A DNA stretch of 59,707 nt, filler included, from Asterionella formosa (taxonomy: Eukaryota), in NCBI GenBank assembly GCA_002256025.1. It is 8 parts of 8 records of this genome, joined end to end, with 100 filler letters (N's around TTAATTAATTAA, not from the genome) between each part and the next. Parts side by side here need not be neighbours in the genome. Positions count along the whole stretch, not along the records: positions 1 to 7,404 come from NKIB01012458.1; positions 7,505 to 14,896 come from NKIB01012459.1; positions 14,997 to 22,381 come from NKIB01012461.1; positions 22,482 to 29,864 come from NKIB01012463.1; positions 29,965 to 37,338 come from NKIB01012464.1; positions 37,439 to 44,798 come from NKIB01012465.1; positions 44,899 to 52,255 come from NKIB01012466.1; positions 52,356 to 59,707 come from NKIB01012467.1. One strand, 5' to 3'. Position numbers and translations under genes: made by a program. Shown here piece by piece: positions 2,051-59,509 of this stretch; positions within the stretch are counted from its first letter, which is position 1; each line of letters begins with the position of its first letter. The notes under the pieces are model-generated. The model was not told the origin of the DNA. It saw only the letters and a program-made list of their open reading frames with translations, and did not search any database.

Positions 2051-2631
2051 AATCTAGGATTATTTGAGTTACTGCTACTGGTGTGAGGAATTGAACAACC
2101 TGGTACCAGATACGAGATAAACTGTATGTATGTATACATAGATAGGTACAACCATTCATGAATACATAGACACATGCATACAATACTGAAATTTTAAAAA
2201 TTGTTCTGTCACATGCTCTGTACTAAGTATACCAAGACAATCATATTAATTAGGTGAACAGAAGCAAACAAAAAACCAAAGCAAAGCCAAGGTCAGCCAT
2301 CCTCATAGGGAAAGACGCCATCAAGACATCCATGATATAAACAGTACATACTAGGCGTCAGTGGGATGATGGAGGGAGGTGGTAAATGCTGCCATGGCTG
2401 AAACTGCATGCCCGATTTGTTCTCATCTCAGCAGTGACAATGGATCGACCAGATATTCCCAGAATTTTCAAATATTTTCAACACCATTGGAGGGAATTGG
2501 AATTGCAAACGAAAAAATGGAGAACGCCATCTGAGTGCGAGCTATTTTAATTGACAGTGTCATTATTTGTCCAGATTTCCTCCAAATGTTTAGTGGAACG
2601 ACACGGAATGGGGCTAAGGACATTGGAATCG

Positions 2632-5235
2632 CTAGCTATCTTTATCATTGGTAGGCAACTCTTCTGCATGTTCCAGATCTGAGGAGGATGGATCGTTGTC
2701 CTTGTCTGGATATTTGGCAGCTTCTGATTTCATCCATGATCGGAATCGATCCGACACTCGAATAACAAAATCCGGTGAAGGAATGTGGTCAGGACGACCA
2801 ATAGGATCGCTTCCATCGGAAAATACCCCCTTCTTCATGTTGCTCAAAAACATATCCAACATTTTGTTCTGAACATTGGAGATCCGACTGGCTTCGCCAG
2901 GTCGAAGCCACAATGGTTCTTCCTTAGGGGGACGGGCTCGATAATCGTTTTCTTCCCACGCTTCCGCAATACGTTCCTTTTCCGTCAACTCAAAGGGATT
3001 TTTCCAATCATCACGTGAGGTGGTTGACCGAGGACGTAGTGGATAAACATAAACAAGACTCGAGGGACGAATGTTCCCATCCAAGGCTTCATCTTCATCC
3101 TTGATATACAAGTTTTCACCCAAAACTTCCGAGTTCCTTGCTTGACCATCACGTCGGAGTCGGCCCATCGTTTGGACTACGCTAGGTTTGGCAGCTGTAT
3201 ATTGATGCAACGGTCTGGGCATGTCTTTGATGGAAATTCCATGCAGTCGACGGAGGCAGTAGTTGGTCGGTTTCTTACCGTCAAGTGCCAATTGGACCAA
3301 GAGTTTGCTTTCTTCTGCAAGGTGCCTCGGCATAAGATGCGCACTTTCCTCTTGCTTGTAGTTGGTTATGTTTCCATTCGAAGTGATAAAATCTTTCATT
3401 CTGTTTAGCAACTTTTCATTGAGTTCTTCTTTTCGATCTCCAGTAAAGGGCAATCCCCAAATCATGACACCGCACACTCTGCCCGATCGATCAAAATAAA
3501 ATACAGCACCCACTCCATACACAGGCAAGGTCGTATCTGTATTGATTTTCTTCGTAAGTCGTTGAGTTAATTTTCGTTCTCTAATACTTTCCACATCAAA
3601 TGTTGTATCTGTAGTAGTGTCCTTTGTGCGGCGCCGACTTAATTTTCGTTCTCGGAGACCTGCCACATTGGCTGCTTGGTTCGTCCACCAAAATCCATGT
3701 GTGGTCATTTTTTCAGAATCACACACTCCAACACATAATGCTTCTATACCCACACACGACAAGGATGTACTATGACATGCATCATGAAAACACATGTCTG
3801 ATCTCCATATAGGAAAAGATTCAGCGGCAAAGGATAACGTCATATCTTGTCGCTTTTTCTGTTGTTTTCGATCACCAAACAACACTCCTTGTTGTCGTTC
3901 TTGATAGTCTCGTGCCATATGCAAGGCTGCCACTCTTCCTGCCAATTTACCATCTACTGTCCCTTCTCCTGCAACATGACCATGTCCAGTAAGTGAATTA
4001 GGATACTTTGCCACGGACCCTGCAGCATATACATTCGATGCCACATGTAACTCTGCATTGACCATGACACGACCATCATCGGCATAACACACACACATGG
4101 ATGGAAAAAAGGGTGGTGCGGTCAATTGCGACCAAGATTGATACCAGGAGGAGGACGTTTCAGATGATGGAGCATGGTGGGAAAGGGCCAAGGAGGGCAA
4201 AACTGCTGTCCCTCGTGGTCCATCGACAGATGGTGCAACAACGACTAAATCAACATGATGCCGTTTCGTGTCGAGCAGATCAAATGTCCGAGTGGTGTGC
4301 AATTCCAAATTTCCATCCATGTCGTTATGAGACAAGTATCGGACCAGGGTCCTATCTCTTACATCAATCCCATGAGTTTGCAATCGTTTGGTGATACTTG
4401 TTGATAAATACCGTGGCACTATAAAGCAAAGTGGTCCTGGTGCACCAAACGTTAGTATTGGCGATACTGTTGCTTTACGAGCAATGGCAAGTGCCAATTC
4501 CATGGCATCCCATCCAGATCCAAGAATGGCAACTTTGGCCCCTTGTGATGCCGCCAATTCGCACACATGTTTCGTAACATGAGGTGCCAAGGCTGGTCGT
4601 TCGTGGTTAGGTGTGCCAAGAGATATTGAAGTAGGTCTCAATTCCAAGAGTCGTGGCATGGCCTTTTGATCTACCAGCATGTTTGGTGGTGGTGCTCCTC
4701 TAACTCCTGTGGCAATTAATATGGAATGATGGTATTGCAATTGTTGAACTGTAGAATCCGAATGTACCAACTGTACCATTTGTGTGGGTGGATGAAATCC
4801 CAAAACAGATTGAGCAAAATAGTGAACCTTGTTGTTGTTGTTGTTATATGATGATGAGTTGGATGTGGCTGTTTGTGGTGTTGGTGATTGAAATGGATCA
4901 ACAACAGCAATTGTGGCAAATGGACATTTTGTTCGTAGTGTTTCAACAGCAGCAGCACCAGCATTCCCGTGTCCCAATACAATGAAATCGTATTCCAAGA
5001 CTTTTGGAGTATTGTTATTATTTGACGCATCCATCAAAGTCCTTGCTGGTGCAACGAGGCGTTGACATTGTGTTGTAAAGTGGCCACTACTTTGACTTTG
5101 GTTGTCCTTGTGATGACTGTTTAGGCAATAACCAGTCATAAGAACTGATGCTGTTGCTGTTGCCACACTGATCCATTGTTTCAAAGGCCCATGATCATGG
5201 CTAGTTGATAGTAGTTGAAGTATTTTTCGTCGCAT
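2632..5235 (-). CDS. AIF-like FAD-dependent pyridine nucleotide-disulfide oxidoreductase (apoptosis-inducing factor family)
   Basis: 867-aa uninterrupted ORF. Motifs: Rossmann FIVLGHGNAG, ILIATG, second Rossmann VAILGSGWDAMELA, GRVMVNAEL..VYAAG, and an AIFM1-type C-terminal YGVGAVFYF...GVMIW. N-terminal hydrophobic anchor-like segment. Confidence 0.8.
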   Translation of the reverse strand: MRRKILQLLSTSHDHGPLKQWISVATATASVLMTGYCLNSHHKDNQSQSSGHFTTQCQRLVAPARTLMDASNNNNTPKVLEYDFIVLGHGNAGAAAVETLRTKCPFATIAVVDPFQSPTPQTATSNSSSYNNNNNKVHYFAQSVLGFHPPTQMVQLVHSDSTVQQLQYHHSILIATGVRGAPPPNMLVDQKAMPRLLELRPTSISLGTPNHERPALAPHVTKHVCELAASQGAKVAILGSGWDAMELALAIARKATVSPILTFGAPGPLCFIVPRYLSTSITKRLQTHGIDVRDRTLVRYLSHNDMDGNLELHTTRTFDLLDTKRHHVDLVVVAPSVDGPRGTAVLPSLALSHHAPSSETSSSWYQSWSQLTAPPFFPSMCVCYADDGRVMVNAELHVASNVYAAGSVAKYPNSLTGHGHVAGEGTVDGKLAGRVAALHMARDYQERQQGVLFGDRKQQKKRQDMTLSFAAESFPIWRSDMCFHDACHSTSLSCVGIEALCVGVCDSEKMTTHGFWWTNQAANVAGLRERKLSRRRTKDTTTDTTFDVESIRERKLTQRLTKKINTDTTLPVYGVGAVFYFDRSGRVCGVMIWGLPFTGDRKEELNEKLLNRMKDFITSNGNITNYKQEESAHLMPRHLAEESKLLVQLALDGKKPTNYCLRRLHGISIKDMPRPLHQYTAAKPSVVQTMGRLRRDGQARNSEVLGENLYIKDEDEALDGNIRPSSLVYVYPLRPRSTTSRDDWKNPFELTEKERIAEAWEENDYRARPPKEEPLWLRPGEASRISNVQNKMLDMFLSNMKKGVFSDGSDPIGRPDHIPSPDFVIRVSDRFRSWMKSEAAKYPDKDNDPSSSDLEHAEELPTNDKDS

Positions 5236-5840
5236 GATGGTTGTAACAGATTGTCTACCTGCCGTGGATGTTGGTCACAAAGTGCTGATATGATATGGCT
5301 GCTAACGAAGGAAAGATAAATTACTGCGTAATCTTCGGCCAACTGGATAGACTTTCTGGAGGTCTACTTTACCATTGTCTTTAAGTGTTGATGGATAATA
5401 TTGAATATAGTAAGTACCACAAAAGGAAGGATGAGAAAATCAATCGAATGGTGACAGGAAATGTTGTGAGGATGACATACCGGTATCTTGCAACAATTCG
5501 ATATAATTTACCACTATCATTGTGGATGCTGAATTTCTTTTGTTCGCATCGTCATTGTTTGAAATTGTGATGACTCAGCGAATGCTCTTGTTGAATATCG
5601 CTAGTGAGTGCTTTACCTTACATGTTCTTGTCGTCGACCGTACATGCATAAGATACGGTGCATCATCATCATCCCGCAAAATATTCTATTTGTAGTACCA
5701 GGGTACCGGTAGACGAGGACAACACAAAGAATGGAATGTGGACCCACCATGGTGAGGATCATATTTTCTCCATGTAATTGCGCTCATTAGTACCTTTTTA
5801 TATTCATAAATACTATTTATGTATTTGGTTTCTTGACGAG

Positions 5841-7404
5841 ATGAACTCACAAAGGACTAAAGCAAGAACATTCTATTTTTACATCATAATGACGTTTCTG
5901 ATGAGCAGTCGTTGGACAAGAGGATTTTCACCATTGATTGCCTTTACACGTCAACAACGTCAACAAGAAGGCGTCATGTGCAGGGGATTATTAGGCAGAA
6001 TCACATCAATGACGGTGCATCGTCGGATGAAGCAAACAAGAATGGCTGATAGTACTAAACGTTGTGCAACTACCGGTAATCATCAAAAGGAATCGGAAGC
6101 GAATTACAATTATGAAATGTCAGGCGTTGACCATAAGGATGATACTATAGGCAATGAAGGATTGCTGTATTTTGATTCGTTCCACGACGATGATGATGAC
6201 GACGACGATGAGGAAAATTCCAATATAACTGATGAAGAATTGATAGTAGATGATGATGATGATGAAGATGAAGAACACGAGGAGGACGAGCTGGATAGCA
6301 ACGATGAACCACCAAACGCTGTGATCCATGCTCATGTCGCGTGGTGTACTGCAGTCCAAACCACGTTACAAGCCCTGGAAACCAAATCATCATCCTTGCA
6401 ACGTGAACTTGACAAGGCCAAGGCTCTTGATCAAACAGTCCTTCGGGCTCAATTGATCGTTAGTCATTTATATCGATTTCAACAAGAGCCGCATTTAACT
6501 ACCATTACTATACAAGATTGGGATGGCAATGCGGATGTAGAATTAGCCTTGGATCCACTGTACGAGTCAGCTGCTGCCGAAGCCGATGCACTCTTTGCTC
6601 AAGCCAGAAAACTTAAACGTGGATCTGCTGTAGTACAAGAATTGATCACTCAAACAGATCATGCGATTGAAATTATGAAACAATATCAAGTAGAATTAAA
6701 AACCATGACTTCGGAAGAGACGGGGACAATCATTGACGAAGAACAGTTTTCGGTGGTACAGCAGAAATTAAAAGATACTTCCAAAAAAACTAACTTTCAA
6801 CTTCCATCACTACAATCAACTTCCACCAAATCACAACAAAAGAAACGTCGAGTCACTTCCAACAAGTCAACAACTTCCATTATGGAAACTTCGGTTCGAA
6901 AACTCATGTCACCTGGTGGATGTGTTGTGTTGGTAGGACGGAATCGACGTGGCAATGACTATATATCGATGCATGTTGCAAGAGGGAATGACATTTGGAT
7001 GCATGCACGTGGACGTCCAGGTGCCCATGTGGTATTACAATCCCGACGTGGTTCACCTCCTGTCACACAGGACTGTTTGGACTTTTGTGCCAACGTGGCT
7101 GCCTTTTATAGTGATGCCAGAACTGAAACCAAAACAGATGTTACCGCCGCAGAACCGAAACATTTATTAAAACCAAGGGGAGCACCACTTGGTGCAGTCA
7201 AAGTGAGAGAAGAATTGTACACCTTGACAGGGTGGCCAGACGATGTGCCCGACGCGTTGAAGGAAGCAAGAGAAAAGTCGGGAATGACTGATGAGTTTAG
7301 AGCCAAGGACAAACAAAAACATAGGCGACGAACTGCGGATGTAGCCAAACAGACTCAAGCCAAGAAACGATCTGAACAAAAAGCGAAACGAAAGCGGGGA
7401 GGAC
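5841..7404 (+). CDS. RqcH/FbpA-like protein (coiled coil/M region + NFACT-R domain), 3' end cut by contig end
   Basis: NFACT-R motifs VLVGRNRRGND, DIWMHARGRPGAHVVL, AAFYSDAR and LKPRGAPLGAV. FbpA-like middle region AQLIVSHLY...LALDP...ADALFAQARKLKRG. First ATG at 5841 (the ORF caller used an upstream TTG). The frame runs into the linker. Confidence 0.82.
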
Positions 7405-7504
7405 NNNNNNNNNNNNNNNNNNNNNNNNNNNNNNNNNNNNNNNNNNNNTTAATTAATTAANNNNNNNNNNNNNNNNNNNNNNNNNNNNNNNNNNNNNNNN
7501 NNNN
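7405..7504. other. Artificial contig-joining linker
   Basis: N44-TTAATTAATTAA-N44, with stops in all six frames; identical at all seven junctions. Confidence 0.99.
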
Positions 7505-11533: not shown

Positions 11534-11569
11534 TCATGGAAAGTAAAGAGTTTCTTTCTTTTTCCCTTT

Positions 11570-11590: not shown

Positions 11591-12195
11591 TTTTATGTTA
11601 CCTATACCGTATTAGTATCGAGAAAGTGAAATCCAACAATGATGTCATTTTGGTATGACATGGGTTTCAACTGCTCGGTTCTCAGCGGCCGCTGATTCAT
11701 CTTGTTGTTTTTGCTCTGACTCGGTGGGTGTTGATTTCCATGCTTCGTCTGTACATACGGTAGGCAGTTACTAGTACCTGGTACCAGGTAGGTGATTGTT
11801 ATAATAGGTACACCATCGGTACATATGATGTCATGATACGCAAATTCCAGAACCTGGTATCTGGTACTCCCATGTACCTGGTATAAACAGTATGTATGTA
11901 TCTTATGATCTCATCCATGATTGTGCTTACCACCGTGGTACTTACTACAGCCGGTACAGTATAGTAGTAATACATACACGGTAATAAATTTCAAGATGAT
12001 ATCTAATTTTTTAAGAAACCATTTTAATATAAATATATAAATAAAATATCCTAGTTTTATTATTAATAATAATGTAGTAATAAGTATTGAAAAGACAGCC
12101 GCCCAACGCCACACTCTCGTCACATGAAGCAATCATCCTCATTTGCACCTCCTCCTCCTCCTCCCAACCACACTGTCATTTTTTTCCCAACCACC

Positions 12196-14891: not shown

Positions 14892-14896
14892 GATTG

Positions 14897-14996: not shown

Positions 14997-15412
14997 CATG
15001 TGAACGATTACAAGATAGATCAAATAAGCTCACAATAAGGTGGGATTAGAACAGAAGGTTTTAATACACTGAGCTTGTCTAGAAAGAGCTAGCATTGCAG
15101 TCAGACTGCAGAAGAATTTAACATACCAGTAGTACCGTGCACAAGCTAGCGACAATGATCAAACGGTACCTGGTACCGTTGCTGCTTGCTTCATCGTGTA
15201 TTTTCCTTCTGCATAATAATATGCATGTAGCTCATGGCGGTAATACTGCCGGTATACCAGGTACCAGGTACTGGTACCGGGAATACGACTCTATTCCATT
15301 TTATGGGTACCGGCGTTTCCATTCTATACTGTCAACATGCCGGAAATGAAGTGAAGACAAGCAATGAATGTAGCTAATGTAAAAAATCATGCATGCTAGT
15401 AAATGTAATTAT

Positions 15413-16761
15413 TTAAATGCGAAGCTGTGGATGACTAGCACCAGTGCAATGATCTCGCATCATTTGATTGACAATCTGTGTTACTGTTTTATCTTGACCA
15501 TAGACCTCATATATTTTGTCAATTGCAGGCAGTATGAGCAGTGAATCCAGCTCGAACTAAGGCAGCCACAGTATCCCACACAACCCGGCGCCGACAATAC
15601 TGTACCTTGACTCTTCCCCTCTCAACCCTTGTAAATAGTCTAGCTGCCTTTCGTCCCCCAATTCCAACTTCGAATTCCTGCCAAAGAACAAATAGTGTCT
15701 TTGGTGCCTTGGAAAGGCTACTGACATAATTGCTACCTCCATCCTCCACATCCATCATGTCTGGATCAGATGTAGCATCAACTTGTTCATTATTGCTTGC
15801 ATTGCATACCACATTTGCGGTGCTGGCAGCTGCCGAAGTTTGGTTACCTGCTGCTAATCTTTGTGATGGCATCCGTGACATTCTTGAAAGGGTAGTTTGC
15901 ATCTTTTTTATCTCCTTCATAACTGTAACCTGGTTGTATCCCACTTGTGCCTGTAACTGTATCATTCCATGTTGTGTCTCCCTCTGCTGGGAGTATAGCC
16001 CAAGGATCTCGTTTCGACTATGCCCAGCAGCTCGAGCTTGTTGTCCACCTGGTCCTTCACCTGTGGTTGTTGTTTTTGTTGTGTAGATTGAAGACATTGA
16101 ACCGATAAGGACTTGCTTTGGTGCCTCACGCTCCTCTTTCACATTCTTTGACCAGCAGAGCTCAGCTGCCAATGTAAAGGGGAAAGCGCCGGTTGCTTGT
16201 CAAATTTTCTTTCAAGAATTTGCAACAATCGTCAATGCGTCCAATCATGTGGAACTGGAAGGTGCATAGAGCAGGCATTTGAAATCATCGTAGAATGTCA
16301 GGGTATTTTCGTAATAAATTCAATGTCGAAGCAAACTCTTCTGCCTCTAGTGGTCGCACTGCTGATGTTGCCTTTCCTTGTTTTCGAACTTCCTTTTTCT
16401 TGACTGCTTTGATCAGGTCTATGATGGGTTGAGACCTTGTTGGGTTGCCAGAATTTGTCATGGGATTCCAGGAGGCAAGTCTGTAAGGAATCAAATATGA
16501 CAAGGCCTTCTTGTAATAATCCAGGGAACTCGAACGTCCAAGTGTTGGATTGTCATCATGTCCAGGGTCAGGACTGCCATACACCTTGTTTGCCATCCAT
16601 TTGTATAAATCCTCAGGCATAATCTCACCTAGCTGCTCATCACTAAACTCATAGCCATTTTCATATGTTGTGCCATCTTTGTAGGACATCATAGACACTA
16701 GGATACTCCTGTAGGCACTAACTTGCTGTGGCTCATTGACTCTTTTCATTGTGGTGTTCAT
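15413..16761 (-). mobile_element. Crypton-like (tyrosine recombinase) transposon relic, internally deleted
   Basis: N-terminal motifs YKKALSY, GNPTRS..IDLIKAVKKKEVRKQG..SAVRP, then after a stop FQFHMIGRIDDC (Box I-like Arg) and WSKNVKEEREAPKQ. C-terminal LSKAPKTLFVLWQEFEVGIGGRKAA..FTRVERG..KVQYCRRRVVWD is GCR1_C-like. One stop at 16285-16287 and frameshifts near 16175 and 15525. The HxxR/Tyr catalytic part is absent. Confidence 0.65.
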
Positions 16762-21805: not shown

Positions 21806-22381
21806 GATGGCCGACGAATTCTCTATTTAGTGCACAGGGTCCATCGTTTATCATATGGAACAGATAGAAGGATTGATTCATGCATACTGCCTACTTCTGA
21901 TCATGTCATACATACAAAAGTGGTGGCACAACACAGTGAGACTCCTGTCTTAGTAGATCGCTGCTCGCATATGTACCACCTGTACATCATACATAAAAGG
22001 TAGAAGAAGATAACGAGCGTATTAATTAATTAACTAACTACAAAATATAAACATACCGGTAGTCTACCCGCAAGTTGCGGAAAATTAGCCGAAATCACGG
22101 TTTGGACAACGCGGATAGTGTAGAAGCTGTGGTGACAAGCAAGAATTCCATTATCCACTCAGCCATCCTCGAAAAGGAACCTTGATTTCTCAGAATCTAG
22201 GACCCACAACTGCAAGTGGCTGGGGCAAATGCAACATCTTCTAGTCCAGCCTACTAATATTAGTTCATTCCCTAGTAGAGCAATAAGACACGTCTCGAAC
22301 TTTGTCGGAATTGATTGCTGACCTTGCTTAAGAGGAGAAAATGCCAATGGTAAAAACAAATGCGAGCTTCAGAATATTTTT

Positions 22382-24615: not shown

Positions 24616-27600
24616 CTCTCCCACACTTAAGGGAAAACCTTTACCTATGAAAAGGTTTGATACGACGAATATTAATTCTTTCTGTAATATGCATAGTGCG
24701 TTGAAAAGTAACTGTACCATTGGCATGTACTTGAATAACAGTATAAGGACCTAGTCCACGATCATCTAAAGTAGTTGGATTATCCAAAAGTATTAAAATC
24801 TCATCATCCACTTTGTAATCATAAGATCGACGACGGACATTAACACGACGTAAGCGTTCGTCAATTATCACTTGTCGATGTTAATGTATCAATTGTAAAT
24901 CTGTAATCAAAGGAATAATTAATTTCATATCAAGTTGAAAAACCCATGCGCCTGGTGAAATACGTGATATACTATGAATAGTAGTTCGAGCTGCATATGA
25001 TGCAGTTGCAAAACATGTATCCACAATATTTTGTGCTTGAAATGCATTCATTGGAGGATGAGCCTTTAACATACTAACTCGTAGACTATTACTGATAGAT
25101 TGATGTAAACGTTCACAGATAGCATTTGCTTGTGGATTCTTTACTGTAGTAGTCACATCTTTAATTCCATTCAGCACTAACATGTGAATGAAAGGAACAC
25201 CAGTAAATTCACCTCCATTGTCATGTATACAACGTTCTGGACGGGGATATCTGACTAACCAATCATTTTCAAATTTCATTGCAATATATTCTGATGTTTT
25301 ATTATTGATACGTGAAATTTCTGCCACATTGGTGACCGTATCAATACAAGTTAGAGCACGAAATTCAATCGCTCGAGTAGCCACTGTTATCTTCCATGGA
25401 CCAATTAAAGCTTCTGGGACTTCTGACCATGGTAATAACAATCCATTCTTAGGTGGAAGTTCACCAAAACCAGTACCAGGTAATCTTGTACGTTGACATG
25501 CTTCACATACTCTTACAATATGTTACACTTTTGCTTTTAATGTAGTGTGATAAAAATGTGTAACAATTGTAGCATTTAATCTTGTCATACCCACATGAGC
25601 TAACATCTGATTATACCAATTAATAATAGGATCCAATAATGATGTAGGAATAGCAATACGCCATGTATCTCCTGGATTCTTCACAAAACAAATTAAAAAT
25701 ATATCATGAAAATTGATAGAGGGAAATTTTAACGGATGCTTTTGTTGATGGAGAATCAATTGTATATCCAGCAATTGTCTATCATGTATTAAATTATAAT
25801 CCAGAGGGTATTGCATATTGTCTGTCAATATTGGATGATTAAGGAAACAGGTAAGCAAAGGTTCATCATCTAATTCAATTGAAAAGGTAGAAGTGGATGT
25901 TGATGTCGGAGAAATCGGTCCAATATCATCCTCCACCAAAGACTCAAGCCTCGGGAGGCGAGAGATGGAATCTGCAATAGCATTGTCAGTCCCTTTCCCG
26001 TAGTGAAAAGCAGGATGATATTCTTCAATATAAAGTCTCCATCTTAGAATACGTTGAATATGTAAAGTATTATAAATAAGATTTCGATGATCAGTGTTCA
26101 CATGTAGAACTGCACCCAATAACATAGAGCGAAATTCTTTGAAAGTTTCTACCACAGAAAGTAATTCTTTTTCAATAGTAGTATAATTCTTTTGAGCAGC
26201 AGATAATTTGCGAGAATAATAAGCAACTGGGAGATCATTTTGCATAATGACCGACCCTAATTGATAATCAGAGGCATCAGTAAAGATATAAAAAGGAAGA
26301 TTATGATCAGGATAACGCATGAGTGTATCTGCAACCAACAACGCTATCATTTCTTCGAAAGCTTGTTGATGTATAGGTAACCAAACAAATGGACTAGTTT
26401 CAATTAAATCTATAAGTGTTCCAAGAACATGAGATCGTCTAGGAAACATGTCTTGATAGTACGTAACAGCACCAAGAAATGATCTGACTCTTTTATAATT
26501 GGTAGGTGAAGACATATTAATCAATGCTCAGACCTTTCTTGAACAAGGTTTCAGTCCATTAGGAATTAACCAATAGCCTAACTAATCTGTCTCTTGGACT
26601 GCCCATTCAAAATTAGATGGATTAATCGTGAAACTATTTGCCTGTAAACGATGTAAAATAGTGTCCGATAGATGAATGTGATCCGAAAAATTCAATGAAT
26701 AACAACCCACGTCATCAATATAAATTTCCACATAATCTAAATCACTAAGAATCTGTTCCATAGTTTCTTGTGCATTATTCGATTATTGTTTCACCCCCAT
26801 AGGGAGACGTAAATATTTATATAACCCAAATGGAGTGGAAATAACGCACAAATTTTGACTCTTCACATCTAATGCGAAAGTATAGTATTGCATAGACATC
26901 CAATTTTGTGAAAAATACATATCCAGCACGTTTAGTGAGAATAGTTTGTATTCGAGGCAAAGGGTATATATTGCGATTGATGACTTTATTGAGTTCACGA
27001 AAATCTGACACCCGCCCATCGGACACTTCCATCCTTTTTTGGAATAATAAAAGTGGGAGATTCCCATTTAGAAGCACCACATTTTTGTAGCACTCCAATA
27101 TCACACAACCGTTGTAATTCGGTTTTGAAAACTTCTAAATGATTATGAGCGACCGGATATGCTCGTTGATGACGAGGGATGGCATTTGATAATAATTCCA
27201 AATGTACCTGTTTATGAGGATAAACTTTTAATTTTCCATCAAATAATGTTTGATGTTTAACTAATATAGTTCGCAAACATGATCGTTGCATTGTTGTTAA
27301 ATGAATCTGTTTATTCACCACTGTATCAATATTCACATAATTATATTAAGCAGCTTTAATTTCCAGCGCATATGAAGATTCCACAATCATAGGTGCATCA
27401 AAATATAATAATACATCACGTAAATGTTCTCCATCATCAAAGAATGTGAGAGGATGCATAGGAAAACTCATTTCCATACAGGACATGGTGTTATTTACGA
27501 AATCAATGGTTAGATCATCTTGACGGAGGAAATTACGTCCTAAAATAGCATCAAATGTGCATAGACCATTAAAAACTTGACACTTTTGTTGTAAAACACG

Positions 27601-29410: not shown

Positions 29411-29581
29411 TGAAGTATCTAACTAGAATTAGTAGTATTTGTTGAATATATGAGCTAATTAATCTTATATACAACTTCTTCCCAAGTTGACATCAAAGTA
29501 CACAATAGGTGTTAGTCGAGTTCTGATATATTTGATAACCCTAACCCTGTATACATCTGCATCTATTTGCAGGATCACTCA
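29411..29581 (-). repeat. 5' LTR of the gypsy element
   Basis: 171-bp direct repeat of 24442-24615, 40 bp upstream of the gag ATG. About 13 substitutions and 2 small indels between the copies by manual alignment. Confidence 0.92.
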
Positions 29582-29864
29582 CATGTTACTGGTACCAGGG
29601 GTACCAGGTACCTAATACTGACTACTTGGTACCTGGTACTGATGCTACCGTTGGTTCATCCTACCGGCATCCTGATACCTAGCAAATAACATGTGACAGT
29701 GGATGTGTTTAATGAGTTGAGTATGAACTCAAAATCCCCTGTACGGCGGTGGTGCTGAAAGCGTGGGTGGAATTGATTTCTTTCATGCATCCTTTGTTGT
29801 TGCTGGCACGTCGTTCGGTCGTGCGTACGTTGACTGGTCCGGAGCGGCCGAGTGATGTTCTCGT

Positions 29865-29964: not shown

Positions 29965-30835
29965 GTTGTACCATACCGGTACCTTCCAGGTACCTGGTAC
30001 CTGGTACTGCCGTACATAGAATTATCGTGTATGAATTCGGGGTTTCTTCTGTACTATCAGGTACCAGGTACGACTTACAATTTTGTGCATCATGCAAACA
30101 TATAAGCATATGCACACTTGACCACGCACTGGTTCATGGTGTCTCCTTGTCTGTGGTTGAGAAGGAATGACAAGATAGAGACCATGTTGAGGTAGATCTT
30201 TCTCAATGTCGACAACAAGGTGATGATCGGTCATTGGCATTTCTAGTATCCATATATGCACATACACATAGTGACTACGCTAGATATGTGTTTTTTTTGT
30301 TGACCACGAAACCAAAACCACGTGTAAGGTATGGCTTGTTGTTGGTGTTGTTGTTGTCCATTGCACCATAGTGGACCATGATGCGTTTTTTGTGTTTGAG
30401 TAACGACAGTGTCCATATACATAGATAGAGCGAGTCGTTGTTAGAAACGGAAACAAGAAACGGAAACGAGCCTGCATTAAATTTGGTTGCTCCGTTCGTT
30501 GAGTACCGGTACGAGATAAAGTCTTCGTGGCGCTGGGATAATTGATTGCTCGTTGGGATTCCAAGTGTCGTCATCATACGATATGTATGTCTTTATTGCT
30601 TTCTTCTTGTACAAATACATACAACTGGCGTTTCTCACTTTGCCATTCACACTCTCGACTCTTTACATTCTCTGTTACTTCCAACTTTTATTTTTTTCAT
30701 TTGCTTTTTATTAGACACGGACGTTTGTCGATTTTGTACTTTTCCCTCACACACCGAAACCTTTTTTTGGATACTTTTTATTATACCTGAAGGGAATAAG
30801 TAGAAGAAGAACAGCAAAACAGCTACAACAACAAA

Positions 30836-37438: not shown

Positions 37439-38130
37439 ACAGTCTCAAGTTGTTGTCACTTTGCAGAAAAAGTTGCATTTGTTGTGAATGCCATGTTTGC
37501 ACAATGCGAATGGGAATGAAGCTCCAAGAAGCATTGGAAGAGTTGACTTTTTTGATTGAAACAATTGTCAATGTCTTTGTTCGGTCATTTTTCTCTTGGG
37601 AATATTCAGTCAAATGACAATGAATTTTTAAAAAGCTTCGCCCAAGAAGCATCATATGGCTATGGCTAGCCCATGTAGAGGCAAGGATACCTCCACTATT
37701 AATGACAGTGAATCCAACATTCTTGTAATGTCACCAAAATAAAATCATTCTACTGATCGTACAGCTTCTTATTCAAGATGAATGCATTCCGGTTGGTAAT
37801 TATTGGTAGGGAATTTCACTGTTTCAACTTAAAGATCAGGTAAACCATTTTCTCGAATTAATGTCAACTCGCCGGCTCTGCTATTAGGTAAGACAATTAA
37901 CTGCCTCGCTGTGAGAGTCCAAATCAGGTTCAGTCACCAACACATATGCATTCGAATACAATATTGAAATCGGATGTGGTAAGTCATTACATGATGTTGA
38001 GCAGCGGTGACTTTATCGATACCAAGGCAGTGATTGCTGGTGCTCGATATCCATCATTGCTTGCTACAAACAGGAACAAGAAACGAAAAACAAGAAAATT
38101 CAAAAATATACACACATCGTAAAGATCCAA

Positions 38131-38936
38131 TTAATCGGTACCTGGCTTGCTCAGAATGATTGAGAGAATAATGGACCAGAGAAAGAATACAGAATTGACA
38201 TAGAGAACCCTTAATCGAGGTGGTACAAATGCAAAGTTAATGACCGTTGCAGGTGTCCATAGTGTCCCTGTGAATCCAATATTATGTGAGTCTAGAATGA
38301 CTTCCAGTGTTGATCTGTGAGCATTTGAGTCGAACACTTACAGTTTGAAAGCAGGGATCTAAAGTAGTCGTGATCCACTTGTTCCTTTATTTCATGTAGT
38401 GATTTTCCTTCCAGAGTTCCCAAAAAGTAAATCGCAACCATGAGAAAGACAGGAGCCTGAATCAGCTGATCAATCAAAACCTTCAAAGCGTTTGAGAAGC
38501 TCCAAGGATTCGAAGTTGGCGGCCAAAGTCCGTCCAAGCACGAATAATAGAAGTGAGAAAATGGTGCCTGCAGAACCAGCCCAAAAAAGGAGAATCTCAA
38601 CACACGAGCCAAATCAATTGAATCATGATCTATTTCGTTCCAATATTCCAAAATTTGCCCAGCCAGGTCGCCAGATCCCAAAATTATAGAGGCAGTAATG
38701 CTTTTAACAAGGAGTGGCCTCTTTTGCAGTACACTACTGTAGGAAATCCACAAATAGACAGCGGACGCAGTAATTCTTGATGACGGCCTTATCTCGTCCG
38801 GTTGAAATTCTGTGTCAATAGACAAATGCCTACCAGTGCTTGTTACTTTCCCCTCGCCGTGCTGCTTTGCAGGTAGCTTCTTCAACAAACCCGTCTCTTC
38901 GTCAGCAATTACTTCATCTTTGACGATTTCATTCAT
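38131..38936 (-). CDS. Mpv17/PMP22 family membrane protein (paralog A), 2 exons; start codon uncertain
   Basis: Motifs PLLVKSITA...GDLAGQ, FG.VLQAP..HFYY..LD and KVLIDQLIQAP. Intron 38341-38268 splits the Trp codon, giving NWTLWTPATVINFAFVPPRLRVLYVN. Alternative ATG near 39014. Confidence 0.88.
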
Positions 38937-39926
38937 CTTGCTTAAGTGCTTGTGATGAGACGCTGTTACTGGGACGTTGGGATGACCTTGTAAGTCAACT
39001 CCGTAAGTGAACATGATGATGATTAAAGGAGGAGTACTCAACTGAGCGATTGTACAAAATGCCGACGTCGACAACTGCACGAACGCACAATTTATCCTAG
39101 GTGTACGTGAGTGCAGTATAATCGAAGAATTATTTTGGCTCAACCGAGCGAAGGCTCCACCCCAATTTTCCGGGTTTCCGAATTGTTTTTAACAATTCTG
39201 CAAACCATCATCATCATGTGGCATCCTGATTTGCAGCAAGCCAGTTAGCCAGCAAGCCAGCAAGCGCCCGCCGACAAAACTGGTTATCCAACTGGCACTC
39301 CAGTTTTACCTGATACTCGAACCAGGTACCAGGTAGTCCAAATGGAATAACTCTAGATATATGATGTGTATACATATGTGTTCAAATGTTCAAACAATAG
39401 CTATAGCGGTGTACGTGTAGTTCTACATTTGAATTCTTTACCAGTACAGCGGATACGTGAGACATATAATTAAATAGATCGCGCGCCTCGCTTGCTTGAG
39501 CGACCGCACCATGCACTGAGTGGAACTGGTCGTGTGTCGTGCGATATCTTTTGGTGTAAATACGTTACGGTACTACCGGTAGACAGAGGGAGTCCCTGGT
39601 AGCAGGGTACCTGGTACCTAGCAGTAAATAGTAGGTGTACAGTAGACTACTCCGTAACTCGATTATTGTTCAATTGATGTTGTACCTAATTCACTGTCAT
39701 AGATATCGGTATCGATTGTTTAAGGTGCCAGCAATGGAAAGGAGCCTACCGTATCCTGGCAAAGACTACGGTATGTACCGCCACGAAGACCTGAAAAGGA
39801 AACTCTTGATGAACATGTAGTTATTGCATTCTTCTTTAATTTTTTAGCTAGAGGGCATGTCACACAACAACTGCGGCCACACGAAAGATTTTCTCGCGCA
39901 ACTAAATGGAGACAAACGTATGTTGA

Positions 39927-40710
39927 CTAGCGATCTACACCCTCTCCGTCTTTGTTCAGTTTCAGACTAAGGAAAATAGACCAAAAGAAGAAGACGCAAT
40001 TCAAGAACAATACTCGCAATGGTGGAGGGCAGAATGCAATGTTTACGAATGTGGCAGGAACCCAAAGCTTCCCTGCGAGTTGAGTGGCAATCACAAGTAT
40101 TGAGTGACGTAGGACAATGTGGAATCCAATAAATTCCTTCAATGGTATACTCACAATTTGCCACCATTGTATCGGTGTAGTCAGCTTCAAGTTGTCGCTT
40201 GATGTCATCCACTGACTTGCCTTCAAGAGTTCCAAGAAAACCAAAGATCAAGACAGTAAAGATGGGCGCCTGAACAAATTGGTCGATAACCACCTTAATC
40301 CCAGTTGTTGCGGTCAACGGATCTGGAGTTGGCGGCAGTGCACCATCTAACATGATATAATAAAAGTGATTCCATGGAGCCTGTAGAACAAAACCGAAAA
40401 AGGCAAACCGTGCTGCTCGCGCCCAGTCCACATCTTTGTCTAACTCCGCCATTCGATTTTCAAGCGCCTGGCCCGCGAGGTCTGCTGCTCCCAAAATCAC
40501 ACCAGCAGTGACAGATTTGGTAAGAAGAGGATCTGTTTCAAGCGCAACATTGTAAGCAGTCCACGCATTCGATAAATCTTCCACCACTTCGGGACCAAAG
40601 AGAGCGAGTTGCGATGGTGGGCGCGAGGTAATGATTTGACGATGAAGCGAGAAAGACCCAACAGGGGCGGCTAAAACGGCCAAAGTGACGCATATACCGG
40701 TGGCTTTCAT
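39927..40710 (-). CDS. Mpv17/PMP22 family membrane protein (paralog B), probably plastid-targeted, 2 exons
   Basis: MKATGICVTLAVLAAPVGS-FSL bipartite presequence; motifs PLLTKSVTAG..ADLAGQ and KVVIDQFVQAP. Intron 40154-40073 gives NWKLWVPATFVNIAFCPPPLRVLFLN. Confidence 0.9.
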
Positions 40711-40872
40711 GACTCTTCAGCTTTTTACTTCTTCTTTGCGTTGCTTCCACTGATGCTTGCAGGAGTGATGAATGTTTCGCTCGTTGTCATGGTGTCAGAG
40801 GGAGTGGTCAGAATAGTTGATTTATAGTACCAGTACCTGCGCGCTTGGTGTAGATATGTATCTGCATACCTG

Positions 40873-40948
40873 GTACCCTGGTACCAGCTCCCTGGTACCT
40901 GGTAGTACCCTGGTACCAGCTCCCTGGTACCTGGTAGTACCCTGGTAC
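40873..40948. repeat. 32-bp tandem repeat (about 2.4 copies) built of CCTGGTA(CC) units
   Basis: Unit GTACCCTGGTACCAGCTCCCTGGTACCTGGTA starts at 40873, 40905 and 40937. Confidence 0.9.
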
Positions 40949-40949
40949 A

Positions 40950-41039
40950 GCAAGTTGCGGTAATTTTGCTGAAACTAAAGATTTAGCTATCTTTATCCCA
41001 GATTAAAATGTTAGTTTAAGCAAAAAGACCGCAACTTGC
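40950..41039. mobile_element. 90-bp MITE-like element with 29-bp terminal inverted repeats
   Basis: Left end GCAAGTTGCGGTAATTTTGCTGAAACTAA versus reverse complement of right end GCAAGTTGCGGTCTTTTTGCTTAAACTAA (26/29). Related ends occur on four other contigs. Confidence 0.72.
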
Positions 41040-41315
41040 AAGGTACCAGGTACATTGTACTGATGATCATATATATATGGTCTATATATGGATCCGCAAG
41101 GCAGCAAAAGTTGCTTTGCTGGACTGATTGATGATCACAGAATTTCGACCTGGTACCAGGTACCAGGGTGTGGGTACTGCCAGGTACAGCCACTACCGCT
41201 ACTCCGATTCCTCCGAATTACATTAACCCAGTAATGCAATTCAGCTAATCCCCGATAAGACTACCGGCATACATAGTAAATAACGATACTACCGGCTCCA
41301 CTCACTCCCGTTGCA

Positions 41316-41912
41316 ATGGAAAATCAACTTCAAGAGTACGAGTGCCAGCTTGCTGATATAGAAGAATTGCTGGAGGCTTCCCCTGGCGACGAATCACTGT
41401 TGGCTCTAAAGAATGATCTTGTCGAGCTTATTTCGCTGACCAAAGCAGGTTCATCGGGCGATCCAGAACCCTTAACGCAGAATAACGATTCGCATACGAC
41501 AATATCTATAGCAGAGCAAGACGGAAACGTGGAAAGACCTGATTCTGCACAGGGTGCTAACGACGATGGAGCGACAGCGTCCGAGCAGCAGCCAGAAGCA
41601 AAAAAGAAGCTCCAGAATGTCAAAGAATTTGAAATTCCTGTTCATCTAATACCACTTGAAACCGACACTGAGGCTGAGAAGAATAAGAAGAGGAGGGCTA
41701 TCAAGGCGCTCAAGAGCAAGTGGCGTGAGAAGAAGAAGGCATTTGAATCAAGTAAGAAACAGCAAACTTGGCAGAATTTTCAGCAAAAAAAGAAACGGAA
41801 AGGTACATCTATATTTGCAACCCAGGACGGGGATAATGCGAAGACTGGAGTGATTTCTGGAGGTACCATGACCGAGTTTGGAGCTAGAAAGCGACACAAA
41901 CACCCTTCGTGA
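41316..41912 (+). CDS. SPF30/SMNDC1-like splicing factor (no recognisable Tudor domain)
   Basis: N-terminal LQEYECQLADIEELL...ESLLALKNDLVELISLT. C-terminal KKKRRAIKALK...KQQTWQNFQQK...SIFATQDG..KTGV.SGG.MTEF..RKRH. Confidence 0.75.
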   Translation: MENQLQEYECQLADIEELLEASPGDESLLALKNDLVELISLTKAGSSGDPEPLTQNNDSHTTISIAEQDGNVERPDSAQGANDDGATASEQQPEAKKKLQNVKEFEIPVHLIPLETDTEAEKNKKRRAIKALKSKWREKKKAFESSKKQQTWQNFQQKKKRKGTSIFATQDGDNAKTGVISGGTMTEFGARKRHKHPS

Positions 41913-42219
41913 ATTAGGCTATTCGGCACTAAGGTTCGTTGAGACCTTCAATTCATTTAAAAGCTTGTCATGACGGAAATTTGAAGGCCAGTATGTCGGA
42001 GTCACGTAGACGGAATCGTGTCTCACAGCCACTTATCACTATGGAAAGGCCTAAGGTCGACTCATACGACATCAGAAGTGGAAAGGAAAGCACTTGGGGA
42101 AATCGGATATAATTTTTTAAATGGCCTTCCAGTAAACGGGGTCGATTAGTTTTTTACTCATTTTAGATTGTTACGAATTTGAACCATGTTCCCATCATCA
42201 ATATGTTAAAGTAATTTCT

Positions 42220-44504
42220 TTAATAGAATTTCGTCGCCTTAAATCGTAAGACTGCCATTGCCATGATGCGAAGGGCAGCAAATAGGCAACACAACACAAG
42301 CCAGTACCACCACGTATCATCTGGATTAGCATTCACACGCTCCAAAAGGTTTTCGCAATTAATGTCTCCTATCTCTGATCCGCAACTACGGTTAAACTCC
42401 GCAACAAGGATAAGGCGAATCGCATAAGTCAACGAGCACAAATACTGAGCCCAGCGGAGCCAAATAGGGATGAGTTCTGGGGAAACAAAGAATCCAGCAA
42501 AAAGCATTTGGGGCACAAACAAAATTGGAAGTAATTCCTGAGCTAGCTTGGGATCCTCAACAGAACAGCCAAGCAACACAGCGAGAGCTGTACTAGCCAT
42601 GGCCAGCATATAACCGATTGCAAGGAACTTAAGAAAGGGGGCCTGAAATCCAATCATGAAATAGGAAATCACAATGTTGACGAGGACTTGAAGAAAAGTG
42701 ATGAACGCCTCCATGACTAATCGCGACATAAAGTAGGAACCAACAGAGTAGTGATTGGTGGAGTACTCCCGGAGGAATACAGGTCGTTCTGTTGGGAACG
42801 CCATCAAAGAATGCTGCGCAGTTCCAAACATCATCATCAGCAATACCATAACGATAGCACCGAAATGACTATTGAGGTTCTATTGTTGGGGAAGCAAGAT
42901 GAAATTGTCAGTTCAGTTAAACGAGTATCTACATACATTGGGGGCCATCGAGGATGTGGGAAACGTACACTTTGTTCGGCCGAATTCGTCTCCCCAACAT
43001 TGAGGAAAATAACCCCAATCAGAGTGCTCAAGAAGATGGTTAAACCGAATCGTGCCGCTACAGCATTAGTATCACGGACCAAGTTTTTGGTCTCGCGGTC
43101 AAAAAGGAGTTTAATCTCTGTGAAAATGCCAACCGGTCGCATATCAAACCCTGGTTCCTTAGCATGTCCAGTTATGGTGATTCCAAGAGCATCTTTTCCT
43201 TCAATACCTTCGTGAAAGGCGGTCTCCATACCGCGCGTATCCTCTGCGAAGAAACCAGCACTTGCCAAGTCAGTCTCTGATAACACTTGGGCTACGTTCA
43301 TCATCCAATCTGCCGGGTTGTAGTTCACAGGAACGGGATGTCCACATTGGGCGAAAAAAGGAGGAACAAGCTGAGGCGACCCTTGGTACATAACCCCACC
43401 TCTACTTAGAAGAATCAAGTGATCGAAGGTGTTGAAAATCTCTGAGGCGGGTTGGTGGATGGTAAACAGCACACTGGACCCGGCATTGGCGACCTTCTTC
43501 AAAACCTGACACAACTGTACCGCAGAAAAGGAGTCCAAACCTGACGTAAAATATTACAATTAGTCGGCCACATTTTTATTTCAAGTTAGCATCCCAAATG
43601 AAACTTTCAGTCTCATATTATCCTTACCACTTGTTGGTTCATCCAAGAACACCAAAGCAGGCTTGGTGACCAACTCAACACCAACACTAGTACGCTTGCG
43701 CTGCCCACCAGAGATACCTTTGATGAGAGCACCACCAACAATAGTATCAGCACAATCTGTTAAGCCGAGCTCATTCAACATGCGTACTGTGAGTTTATCA
43801 ATCTGGTGATCGGTGGTGGATCTAGGCAGACGAAGCTTGGCAGAGAACTTAATGGCCTCCCGAGGAGTGGAAGTAACCTGAAGTGAATCATCTTGCGCAA
43901 CAAAGGCAATCTGCTTGCGCACTTCTAAATTTGTAGGATCGACAGAATAGTTATCAAGACGAATATCAGCATCAATCTTGATACGTCCGCGGGTAGCAGC
44001 GCGTCCAGCAAGAATGTTTAGGAGCGAGGTCTTTGCGGGTCGAATGATACATCGAAAACGTGATTAGCACGATGAAGAGCAGCGAAAAAGTATGCAGATT
44101 GATGGTGCACTTACTTTCCCGGCGCCACTAGGCCCCATAATAGCAGTGATCTGCTTCGGTGGCACTTCACCCCAGCTATCTTTGAGAAGCATGCGATCTT
44201 CCTCGCCCTTTTTGCCTACCTGTTGGTGTCAATGAGAAGGGAAGGGAACATCAGTGGAACCAACGACGGAGGAAATGAAGGGCTTGCTCTCAAGTTCCAT
44301 TAGAAAATACAAACGCACCAAAGTCATGTTAACATTCTTCCAAGCCAAAGTCTTCCCTTCACGAGGGGCGAAGGGATCATCTTGGGTATCAAGAACACTA
44401 ACTGCCCTGTGAATTCCCGTGGTATGGTGAGCCTTGGCAGCTTCGACGCCGGCTTCCTCGGGGGCGTCGGTGTCGGTGCACTCTATTTCGTTGGCGGGGT
44501 CCAT
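42220..44504 (-). CDS. ABCG (White-type) half-size ABC transporter, 5 exons
   Basis: Exons 44504-44319, 44219-44115, 44030-43628, 43540-42969 and 42879-42220 with in-frame GT-AG introns. Walker A GPSGAGKT, signature ISGGQRKR, Walker B FLDEPTSGLD, TIHQP, NPADW, ERPVFLREY and an ABC2 membrane domain. Confidence 0.95.
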
Positions 44505-44798
44505 CTTAAACGTTCGTCTCGAAAGCTATCGTAAATGTGTGATGTGTGATTTGTGTGCAGGACAACAGCACACATTATTCTTGATAACGAAAGGTTTAGG
44601 AAAGGAGAAGTACCGGTACAAAGAATGTAAACGTATACTCCTTGTCCGTAGAGGCTTCTGATTTGAGAAGCCGATCAATGAACGTCTTGCCTGTTCCAGG
44701 ATGCTCATCGTGTTCATTTCTGTTCTTCTCCAATTGATAGTTTCTATGACACCCATTGTTCACAAACATTCGTCATCAACACATCCATCATTTTTTTT

Positions 44799-51300: not shown

Positions 51301-51324
51301 TGCAAATAAAATAGAACATTCATT

Positions 51325-52255: not shown

Positions 52256-52355
52256 NNNNNNNNNNNNNNNNNNNNNNNNNNNNNNNNNNNNNNNNNNNNT
52301 TAATTAATTAANNNNNNNNNNNNNNNNNNNNNNNNNNNNNNNNNNNNNNNNNNNN
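52256..52355. other. Artificial contig-joining linker
   Basis: N44-TTAATTAATTAA-N44. Confidence 0.99.
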
Positions 52356-53377: not shown

Positions 53378-54278
53378 ATTTCCTTCTTTCCTCGATTTGT
53401 TGTTTACTGTTAAATTTATTGTTCAGTTCAGTAACATCAGTCGTAAGCCCGTAACTTGGGAAATGCCGTAACCAATTTGATATTTTGGAAATATAATTCT
53501 TGATTCAGCGATGATTTGATCAATATGTGACAGAAGAAAACACGGAAGCTATTATGTAAATGATGGACCTGGTACGAGGTATACCGTGTGATTGCTTTGG
53601 AAATTGTGCGTTGGCAAGAACAAGTATTTCCTACCATTGAACGCGTGGTCGCCGGCAGGCAGACATGTTCGCCTACAGACTCGAAGATAACGAGAAATCG
53701 ACAATTGTTATACATGTATGGATTTCTGCCAGCTTCATGTGTAGGAACATTTCCTCTAGGTATACATTTCAACATCGCTCCTTAATTATCGATCGTGTGT
53801 TCAAGGCAGTATTGAAGACAGCGCGGTGCTTCCATTCGAGCGAAATCGAATACCGGGTGACGATACAACTCTTGTGAATGGTGCGCGCAGAGGAAGGAAA
53901 AGTCAGCAAGTTGTTGCGGTAATTTTGCTAAAATTGATAACGTGACGCAGGACAGGCGTATAAATTAAAAACGTCATCAATTCACTCTTGAAAATCGCTT
54001 TTGGTATGATTACCGGTAGCTAGAGCATCTCCATTGCATCAACCAAATACCGAAGTCAAACGCAGTTGAAAATATCAAAACACCTCACTTGGTTGAGAAT
54101 TTTTTTAATCATTAGTCGAAATTTTCAAAAAATTTCCCACCACATCGACCAAATCCCAAAATAGTCAAATTTCGCACCCAAAATTTGAGCAAATAGAAAT
54201 AGAGCTATATTGTCTGTATATTAGTTTTGTTGATATAGCGGCATGTACTAAATAGGTATATAAACACAACACGAAACA

Positions 54279-55430: not shown

Positions 55431-55479
55431 ATTTAAAAATTGAAACTCACTTATAACACGCACGCTTTCTCTAAGACCA

Positions 55480-57780: not shown

Positions 57781-59509
57781 GGGTGGCAGAAATTACAGAT
57801 GGAGCTCGGCTTCGCCTCGCACCACTATGGGACTCCGGAACTGATTTACATACCGGGGGTATATATACCTTTTTGCGTGGAGTGATATCGAAACTACATA
57901 CAGCCACGTAGATACAATATAAATGTATAAATACAAACCATGAGCATACATGTTGGCATACTCCTGATTTATATATGTGTTTTGCCCTTGAGCAAAATTA
58001 TGTCTACATTCAGCAACGTAGATATAGTATTGAGGTTTAAATATCATTTTTGTTTGTTTAAAATGGATTTCTATCAATCTGGTGCCGATTCCTAGCTATT
58101 TAATTCAAATATTCAAATGAACACTCGAATCATGGGAATTCATAGTAGGAAACTCCTTCTTCCTCACCGTTTTACAACCTTAGCGACGTTTTCTCCGAAC
58201 TAGAATTTAGCCGGGGCCATAAAATCAGTCAAATTCAGTCACAACAGTGTACATTGGGGTGTCCATGATAATGAAGTATATGGGTTTACCTTTAAATTGT
58301 GTTATTTTTTCTATACACATTAAATATTTGTGAGTGTTGCGCCAGATGTGCAAAGGAGGGTACAGGTATGTTACAATTTAAGGCGCTTCTTCCAAGCGTG
58401 CTCCAGTATCACAACCCTTGAATGATCTGTCACAATCTTTTTCGCGCCGTTTGTTTGCTCATTATTTTAATAATATTATATATATAAATACTCTCTATAT
58501 CCATATAGATACTCAGACAATGTCAAGTCGTCGGACACCTTTCGACATCAACGGCCTATCAGACACATTCAGACACAGATACGAGGCACCATGTTTAATT
58601 TTGCTGCATTTCAACTCTAGTTTAGAGGTAGAGTTTAACATAATATTGAGTCAGAGTACTCAAACAAAAACTTCTTACGATTAAAACATAAATGTATATC
58701 GCTAAACGGAGCTTTCACCAATATACTGGTACACCCTTTCCATATGCTTAGATACAGTCATTGACAAAAGTAGGGGGTATACCGGTAGTTCACCGCAATA
58801 TATCGTCAGGATATAGGATCTGGTGAGATATAGACTGGAAATTTCGGGGGAAATTACTTTATTTGGCATAGTAAAAAAACCGGAAGTTCCTTTCTCCAGT
58901 TTTCGCAGAAGTTATATACAGATGCTATTTGAAGGTTACCTATGTGTCTACCGGTAAATCGCCTTCAGACCCAGCCAACGTTGAGCTATCGTCGTCCAAA
59001 AATTCGACAAAATCGGCCTTTTCTACCATCTCCAAAATATCAGAAACAGAACCACTTAGCACCGAAACGTCATCATCTGAATCAGAGCCTTGTGATGCAA
59101 TATTTAGTTGTCAAATTTCCAGTACCAAAAATTCCATTGTAAATGCGCGCAGTATTACTATATAGGTATTCACTTTTTATTCGACAGAGAATGCTACCCG
59201 TAGTGGAAGCTAGTGCACTACTAATTTGCTAGTACCGTCTACACAGCCAGCACCTGATCATGAATGTTTGCATATCGCTCACAAGCATGACCATCTTTAC
59301 CAGTTGCTGTACCTGGTACCTGGTACCTCTACTCATTACAGGTACCAGGTACCAGGTACTTCGTCGTGCAATTCAATATATGTACCAGGATACCGTAATT
59401 TTGTGTGGGCTATCATACTATGGTACTCCTACAATACATATTAACACATCGGTAAATCAAATCATATCAAATGAATAACATGAAATGGAAACAATGAGAA
59501 TGTAATAAT

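Follow-up and report, generated by a model that had tools for sequence, protein, structure and literature searches.

The DNA analyzed here, a stretch of 59,707 nucleotides from Asterionella formosa (assembly GCA_002256025.1) referred to below as the window, consists of eight contigs, each 7.35-7.40 kb long, with N44-TTAATTAATTAA-N44 spacers between them. The 18S gene and homologues in Fragilaria place the source among the diatoms. A short motif recurs along it and resolves to two TA-bounded words, TACCGGTA (TA-CCGG-TA) and TACC(A/T)GGTA (TACCWGGTA). The units are chained through common TAs, and the two words are not alike in their flanking context. We conclude that these words are probably accumulated, stacked excision footprints of TA-targeting transposons of the pogo type (IS630-Tc1-mariner). 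An earlier reading of the sequence (the original prediction) had described a (TACCTGG)n tandem repeat; the real unit is TA-CC(W)GG-TA, chained at common TAs, and not a microsatellite.

Expected counts were derived from 60 dinucleotide shuffles of the window and are given as mean (maximum). TACCGGTA occurs 20 times in the window, versus 0.25 (2) in the shuffles, and TACCWGGTA 25 times, versus 0.28 (3). The corresponding values are 45 versus 5.6 (10) for GGTACC and 76 versus 8.9 (16) for the heptamers TACCTGG/CCAGGTA. Both words are thus far above a composition-matched background, as predicted. Every site listed in the original prediction carries the motif or a close variant (those at 2099, 11852 and 18349 are partial units), and the palindrome reported at about 11775 is a perfect 16-mer. 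The motif had been placed on seven of the eight contigs: contig 7 (44899-52255) is indeed free of clusters, but it contains two copies of TACCGGTA, so the union of both words is found on all eight.

The proposed genome-wide distribution also holds, since the 16-mer TA-CCTGG-TA-CCAGG-TA is present in 1500 copies in the genome (68.4 Mb), versus none for a control pattern. Exact genome totals of CCWGG doublets are 3074 in the same orientation, 1500 T-then-A and 1002 A-then-T, i.e. 2502 of 5576 neighbours (45%) are oppositely oriented. The window and 200 kb of three long contigs (259 kb together) contain 126 copies of TACCGGTA and 108 of TACCWGGTA; the long contigs were chosen from earlier hit lists and do not form a strictly random sample. 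Extrapolation to 68.4 Mb gives roughly 33,000 and 28,000 copies, respectively, together about 60,000 words. One-mismatch variants are in excess at every position of both words (192 versus 52 and 139 versus 48), as expected for scars decaying neutrally. The sites distinguished in the window are listed below (pogoA and pogoB are pogo elements described later; X numbers denote sequencing runs).

5696..5711: two-unit chain TA-CCAGGG-TA-CCGG-TA, 145 bp 5' of an ATG
11775..11790: perfect 16-bp doublet TA-CCTGG-TA-CCAGG-TA between two divergent genes
11853..11883: degenerate chain with one intact TACCTGGTA at 11875
15165..15278: chains at 15165-15177 and 15250-15278
29588..29640: chain cluster right after the end of a Gypsy-like copy (the match to L131 ends at 29589)
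29974..30070: chain cluster at a contig start
34021..34090: mixed CCGG and CCWGG chains
39024..39025: plain TA located about 9 bp 5' of a start codon, with TACCGG inserted in one X1 haplotype
39322..39335: chain CCAGG-TA-CCAGG-TA
39574..39581: polymorphic TACCGGTA, six letters of which are absent in runs X1 and X2
39595..39620: degenerate chain with one intact TACCTGGTA at 39608
40867..40947: largest array, with a 32-bp duplication skipped by contigs of X2, X8 and X17
40951..41038: 88-bp miniature inverted-repeat transposable element (MITE) with inverted ends CAAGTTGCGG...CCGCAACTTG
41044..41165: TACCAGGTA adjoining the MITE, and a chain at 41149-41165
58220..58369, minus strand: fragments of decayed pogo ends, one matching the pogoB terminal repeat (88% over 67 bp) and one a subterminal piece of pogoA (88% over 73 bp)
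58724..58956: repeat copy with gained words (decayed TACTGGTA at 58724; TACCGGTA at 58780 and 58949)
58743-58744: plain TA of this repeat copy, matching the empty/filled/scarred site described below
58753-58754: plain TA of this repeat copy, at the position of a 16-mer in paralog L061
59310..59358: two doublets of opposite orientation

Two tandem genes on the minus strand (38292-39188 and 39967-40716), which we take to encode proteins resembling the Mpv17/PMP22 membrane proteins, each have a motif cluster upstream. An orthologue search in metagenome contigs with the gene beside the largest array found nothing. The chains at 15165-15278 are located just downstream of a minus-strand open reading frame (ORF; 15522-16199) with a weak GCR1_C match (E 0.002, below the cut-off), which may be what is left of a Crypton-like element. 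The end of the Gypsy-like copy contains a short TTAGGG-type run (about 29535-29550), the length of which differs among copies, and TACCAGGTA at 25474, within a Gypsy pol frame, may simply be coding. The overlapping contig C14021 contains a decayed pogo transposase that stops about 70 bp short of the cluster at 29974..30070; in the window itself, neither a pogo transposase nor a copy of the CCA family (see below) was found.

TACCGGTA is gained by insertion at TA, with a TA left on both sides. Contigs of four public runs were compared with positions 37439-44798 of the window. Rows from other MITE copies and from one paralog were excluded from the resulting table of allelic indels, and one row is not shown; two X2 contigs, each with seven gap letters absent from the table, were left uncounted, and no evidence was taken from runs having small word shares, with the exception of the X17 findings. 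Two of the five indels on single-locus contigs represent TA versus a TACCGGTA unit, the other three being of one, four and five letters. The runs lacking the six letters at 39574, X1 and X2, differ from each other nearby, and the X1 haplotype that gained TACCGG at 39024 has no CCGG template in the flank.

Repeat copies give the same picture. TA versus TACCGGTA accounts for 25 of the 96 six-base indel sites found between them (972 kb of fetched DNA, overlaps included). The copy at 58949 is missing in seven of seven paralogous loci, and the one at 58780 in all five that align cleanly. In the case of TACCWGGTA, the 16-mer of paralog L061 corresponds to a plain TA in the window and in six other copies, and a single unit was gained at a TA without a neighbouring unit (L131 versus window position 28450).

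Elements with matching ends reside in the genome, in which 93 matches to DDE_1 (pogo) were identified; a genome search for Tc1/IS630 (DDE_3) gave no match. Element pogoA (2.46 kb) has ends that begin, after the flanking TA, with CCGTAAAACC (170 ends versus 2 for the control). It contains terminal inverted repeats (TIRs), is flanked by a TA duplication and encodes a transposase (PF03184, 77.6 bits versus a cut-off of 22) with an intact DD35D triad. Its copies are 99.6-100% identical and occur in different flanks, i.e. they are young. pogoB starts with CCG as well, and the tips of both elements are CCG...CGG. Since empty paralogs carry a single TA, the pogo elements duplicate this dinucleotide. 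A second, convergent ORF of about 145 aa without a Pfam match is also present in pogoA (L048:781-1215) and pogoB (L051).

One repeat position was found empty (L157, L197, L065), filled by pogoB (L140) and scarred, with the sequence CA-CCGG-TA (L210). An earlier candidate for such a trio (L086/L048/L056) was rejected, as it comprised two similar sites 136 bp apart. Judged by their sequence, the inner letters of TACCGGTA correspond to the terminal bases of the resident, TA-duplicating pogoA and pogoB, and this word is very probably a pogo-type excision footprint.

The second word resembles the ends of another group of elements, designated the CCA family, which follow the flanking TA with CCA(G/C)TTAAAAACTG (359 ends versus 12 for the control). 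Its members are 0.7-kb derivatives, decayed copies of 2.2-2.4 kb and L247, a complete 3.5-kb element from a sister subfamily. The transposase copies are 97-99% identical to a public protein, and a 3.78-kb copy in a public assembly (L253), with an uninterrupted frame of 964 aa, is located at the end of a (CCTGG-TA)3 chain. L247 and L253 both have short TIRs and a TA duplication around one long ORF. TA is present at both ends in 18 of 19 full-length relatives, and the empty sites L237, L157 and L094 contain a single TA; a 4-bp GTAC duplication was considered and rejected on the basis of L241, L242 and the empty site L237. In the transposase, three aspartates within pogo-like motifs are invariant, the second and third being 37 residues apart, and the ten best named hits of the protein in the ESM Atlas all belong to DDE_1 or its clan (top score 0.95).

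L247 also belongs, with P0001-P0120 and L251-L330, to a large family of TA-flanked transposases of 900-1000 aa without Pfam annotation, with named hits in a diatom. The tips of 19 full-length elements of this family are CCA (14), CCG (4) and CAA (1). CCG-tipped relatives from other samples (L317, L319, L321, L325) lie among TACGTA repeats (3-5 per flank of 200-400 bp), and this shorter TA-C..G-TA word may be the scar of another host.

The CCA family and TACCWGGTA share their surroundings. GG is present outside the TA at 42 of 62 CCA ends versus 5 of 49 CCG ends, and in 133 of 216 flanks of TACCWGGTA versus 35 of 252 flanks of TACCGGTA, the background being 7%. Correlations of six-base flank profiles are 0.92 for CCA ends with TACCWGGTA and 0.59 for CCG ends with TACCGGTA; the crossed values are 0.45 and 0.22. 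A complete unit adjoins 22 of the 62 CCA ends. The inner letters of TACCWGGTA match the CCA...TGG tips of this resident, TA-duplicating element, and we consider it reasonably likely that the word is the excision footprint of the CCA family.

Other elements use the words differently. One end of the 88-bp MITE has 336 exact copies in the genome. Among 41 ends chosen regardless of the outer flank, 16 of 23 partner ends begin with AG, repeating the CAG, in both element orientations, and two paralogs lacking the MITE show an intact word, so the element inserts into TAC-CWG-GTA. The MITE apparently makes a 3-bp CWG duplication and uses the scar as its target. Its own tips (CCA/AGG) were rejected as the source of TACCAGGTA, because the third base tracks the target and not the orientation of the element. 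At 22064-22080 and 53904-53933 of the window, the MITE family is represented by single ends that have no partner nearby, and longer derivatives share a MITE end (L020, L168, L169). A transposase partner of the MITE was not found; the single young Harbinger family that was inspected has ends unrelated to those of the MITE and is flanked by TNA. This very young family (ends ...GAACGACCC, copies 99-100% identical) breaks dozens of contigs, and contigs of G000 start inside a Harbinger transposase (L331-L342). A nearly perfect inverted repeat of about 700 bp with no recognised element was observed in L023 (about 760-1490).

Insertion of the elements duplicates TA, the words themselves are gained as insertions at this dinucleotide, and their letters are those of the element ends. 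Excision footprints are the most likely explanation, a reading that is strong for TACCGGTA and weaker for TACCWGGTA. The transposase would cut a few bases inside each element end, leaving 3' overhangs that are then sealed by end-joining. CCG tips would pair via CG to give TA-CCGG-TA, and CCA tips would be joined over an A:A mismatch to give TA-CC(A/T)GG-TA with either central base. Such joining fits the 45% of oppositely oriented neighbours, of which slippage alone would give none. As a scar starts with TA-CC and ends with GG-TA, each one would supply half of the GG-TA-CC target preferred by the CCA family, and each scar-scar junction all of it, which would produce the chains seen in arrays. 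With repeated visits, and now and then through slippage, units may accumulate at a single spot, and other elements, such as the MITE, would later land on the scars. The excision footprint and the insertion target, both among the options of the original prediction, thus find support in the allelic and paralogous gains, the trio and the target preference. That all copies belong to one ordinary transposable element (TE) family, which it had named as a refutation, does not apply as worded, because the words would be scars from at least two TE lineages.

Several observations weigh against excision footprints. The empty/filled/scarred trio is a single case, found among paralogs, and the left TA of L210 has one substitution. 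With strict filtering, TACCWGGTA gains explain just 1 of the 45 seven-base indel sites, plus one site of 14 bases; relaxed filters give about ten, several of them imperfect or unpolarised. No such trio was found for the CCA family among the flanks compared (about 1 Mb of 68 Mb), so this family might simply insert into arrays of another origin. TACCWGGTA is absent from the roughly 8 kb that flank twelve CCA-tipped relatives from other samples, and the scar would consequently depend on how the host repairs the site or on a burst in this lineage. Pfam (0 of 32 members), PDB and profile comparisons did not match the CCA transposase to pogo proteins; as its neighbours in the language model are DDE_1, we call it pogo-like and not a proven member. 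A CAG-tipped pogo family leaves little trace (observed/expected ratio, O/E, of TACAGTA 1.4). Finally, the extrapolated 60,000 words face a few hundred elements, which would require a very high turnover; the two gains that separate close haplotypes over 7.4 kb agree with heavy turnover, but are few.

The position of the words relative to genes raises a separate question. As originally predicted, they lie mostly upstream of or between genes and avoid long ORFs: in 20.5 kb of long ORFs in the window, TACCGGTA occurs once (at 6071) and TACCWGGTA is absent. The single copy (6071-6078) is near the N-terminus of an ORF, where a 6-base insertion would preserve the frame. In the 200 kb of long contigs, the 500 bp 5' of an ATG contain 2.1 and 1.4 copies of the two words per kb, respectively, compared with 0.33 and 0.27 per kb downstream of stops. 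Upstream to downstream counts are 45:7 and 52:10, against 237:219 for background TA. Element ends do not reproduce this promoter bias (3:1 for pogoA, 2:4 for CCA, with few informative ends), which is a further point against the footprint explanation. The bias of about 6:1 could be due either to insertion into open chromatin, with long elements being lost, or to selection acting on the words, which may have a regulatory role.

The rival that we regard as the least remote, though still unlikely, accepts TACCGGTA as a pogo scar and ascribes the TACCWGGTA arrays to slippage, template switching or a sequence-specific repair insertion at GGTAC, the CCA family being a user of these targets only. The scarcity of clean single CCWGG insertions (the 1 of 45 given above), the 32-bp duplication segregating in the largest array and the relatives from other samples without the word in their flanks are in line with this, and the MITE shows that elements here can be pure motif users. 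However, slippage yields neighbours of the same orientation only, and both the 16-mer of L061 and the single unit of L131 versus 28450 were gained at TAs without an adjacent unit; moreover, TACCWGGTA exactly matches the CCA...TGG tips. An improbable alternative is that a general transcription or chromatin factor binds the words, which selection retains in promoters, and that the element tips are similar by coincidence or through tethering. The upstream densities favour it, as does the collection of several element types at arrays, and TACCGGTA is a reported promoter motif in Phytophthora and Plasmopara, according to the parts of the articles available to us (PMC3597505, PMC10031896). Yet the words come as whole insertions of 6, 7 or 14 bases, even within decayed repeats, they segregate as presence/absence alleles, and their one-mismatch variants are excessive at all positions, as under neutral decay. 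Selection would account for retention and not for origin by insertion, and it may act secondarily.

The original prediction had also considered a methyltransferase target or a highly iterated palindrome. A palindrome comparable to HIP1 would be created by methylation-directed mutation or repair at CCWGG, CCGG or GGTACC. The words do contain these sites, and TACCAGTA, a possible product of CpG decay, is in excess (65 versus 8.4). With TA-bounded words masked, however, the O/E is 1.06 for CCWGG and 1.15 for CCGG; because the cores are not enriched without flanking TA, such an origin is very improbable. In addition, the words avoid ORFs and arise by insertion, not by substitution.

If the words are indeed excision footprints, they record the frequency and place of cut-and-paste moves, including moves without a surviving copy, and searches for promoter motifs in diatoms and oomycetes could mistake transposon scars for regulatory sites. 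Experiments on individual loci have made excision footprints familiar; in this genome they seem to form the most over-represented word and to be a common source of indel polymorphisms close to start codons. The CCA family is a candidate site-preferring (GG-TA-CC) transposase from diatoms. We tentatively hypothesize, while considering it rather doubtful, that the scars are self-feeding: a poorly characterized diatom transposase lineage would make its own preferred target on leaving, its footprints would collect in promoter arrays, these arrays would serve other elements as a landing pad and be co-opted as promoter signals, and the oomycete motifs TACATGTA and TACCGGTA would have the same origin.

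The mechanism is of a known kind, and its scale, chaining and apparent self-targeting were not found in the literature searched, in which the words are also undescribed in diatoms (most subscription journals and supplements were outside the search). The comparisons below refer to the portions of the cited articles available to us. In Tc1/mariner elements the cut is made a few bases inside the ends, and the terminal bases are left between two TAs (PMC6943129). The Sleeping Beauty footprints TACAGTA/TACTGTA (PMC6943129) are similar to the words in having TA on both sides of the terminal bases of the element and two central-base variants; they differ in that here the enclosed part joins bases of both tips (CC..GG), and in that tens of thousands of units (extrapolated) are chained and form the top over-represented word. 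With its DDE_1 domain, DD35D triad, TA duplication and length of 2.46 kb, pogoA resembles the pogo superfamily (PMC7386202). The CCA family has TA duplication, short TIRs, a length of 3.3-3.8 kb, one long ORF and an aspartate spacing within the ranges reported there. Unlike that superfamily, its transposase is missed by Pfam DDE_1 and by profile comparison, being linked by language-model features only, and the family strongly prefers a GG-TA-CC target.

The cyanobacterial HIP1, which has been tied to methyltransferases of its core (PMC4390886), is likewise a highly iterated short palindrome, but in A. formosa the core is not enriched and the word arises through insertion at TA. As reported for NuwaI and PIF-Harbinger elements (PMC4482050), the target of the 88-bp MITE is palindromic and its CWG is apparently duplicated, although the MITE ends start with CAAG, not GGG, and no matching Harbinger transposase was found. 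In oomycetes, TACATGTA and TACCGGTA have been described as candidate transcription factor sites in promoters (PMC3597505, PMC10031896); the 8-mer TACCGGTA is identical, is abundant upstream of genes in both cases and occurs in a related stramenopile lineage. In Ustilago maydis, TE footprints have been suggested as the nature of 10-bp repeats (PMC4081816); these, too, are numerous, short and dispersed, and are proposed to be relics of earlier transposition. In that fungus this is a suggestion only, whereas in A. formosa candidate source elements, allelic gains and one trio accompany the words.

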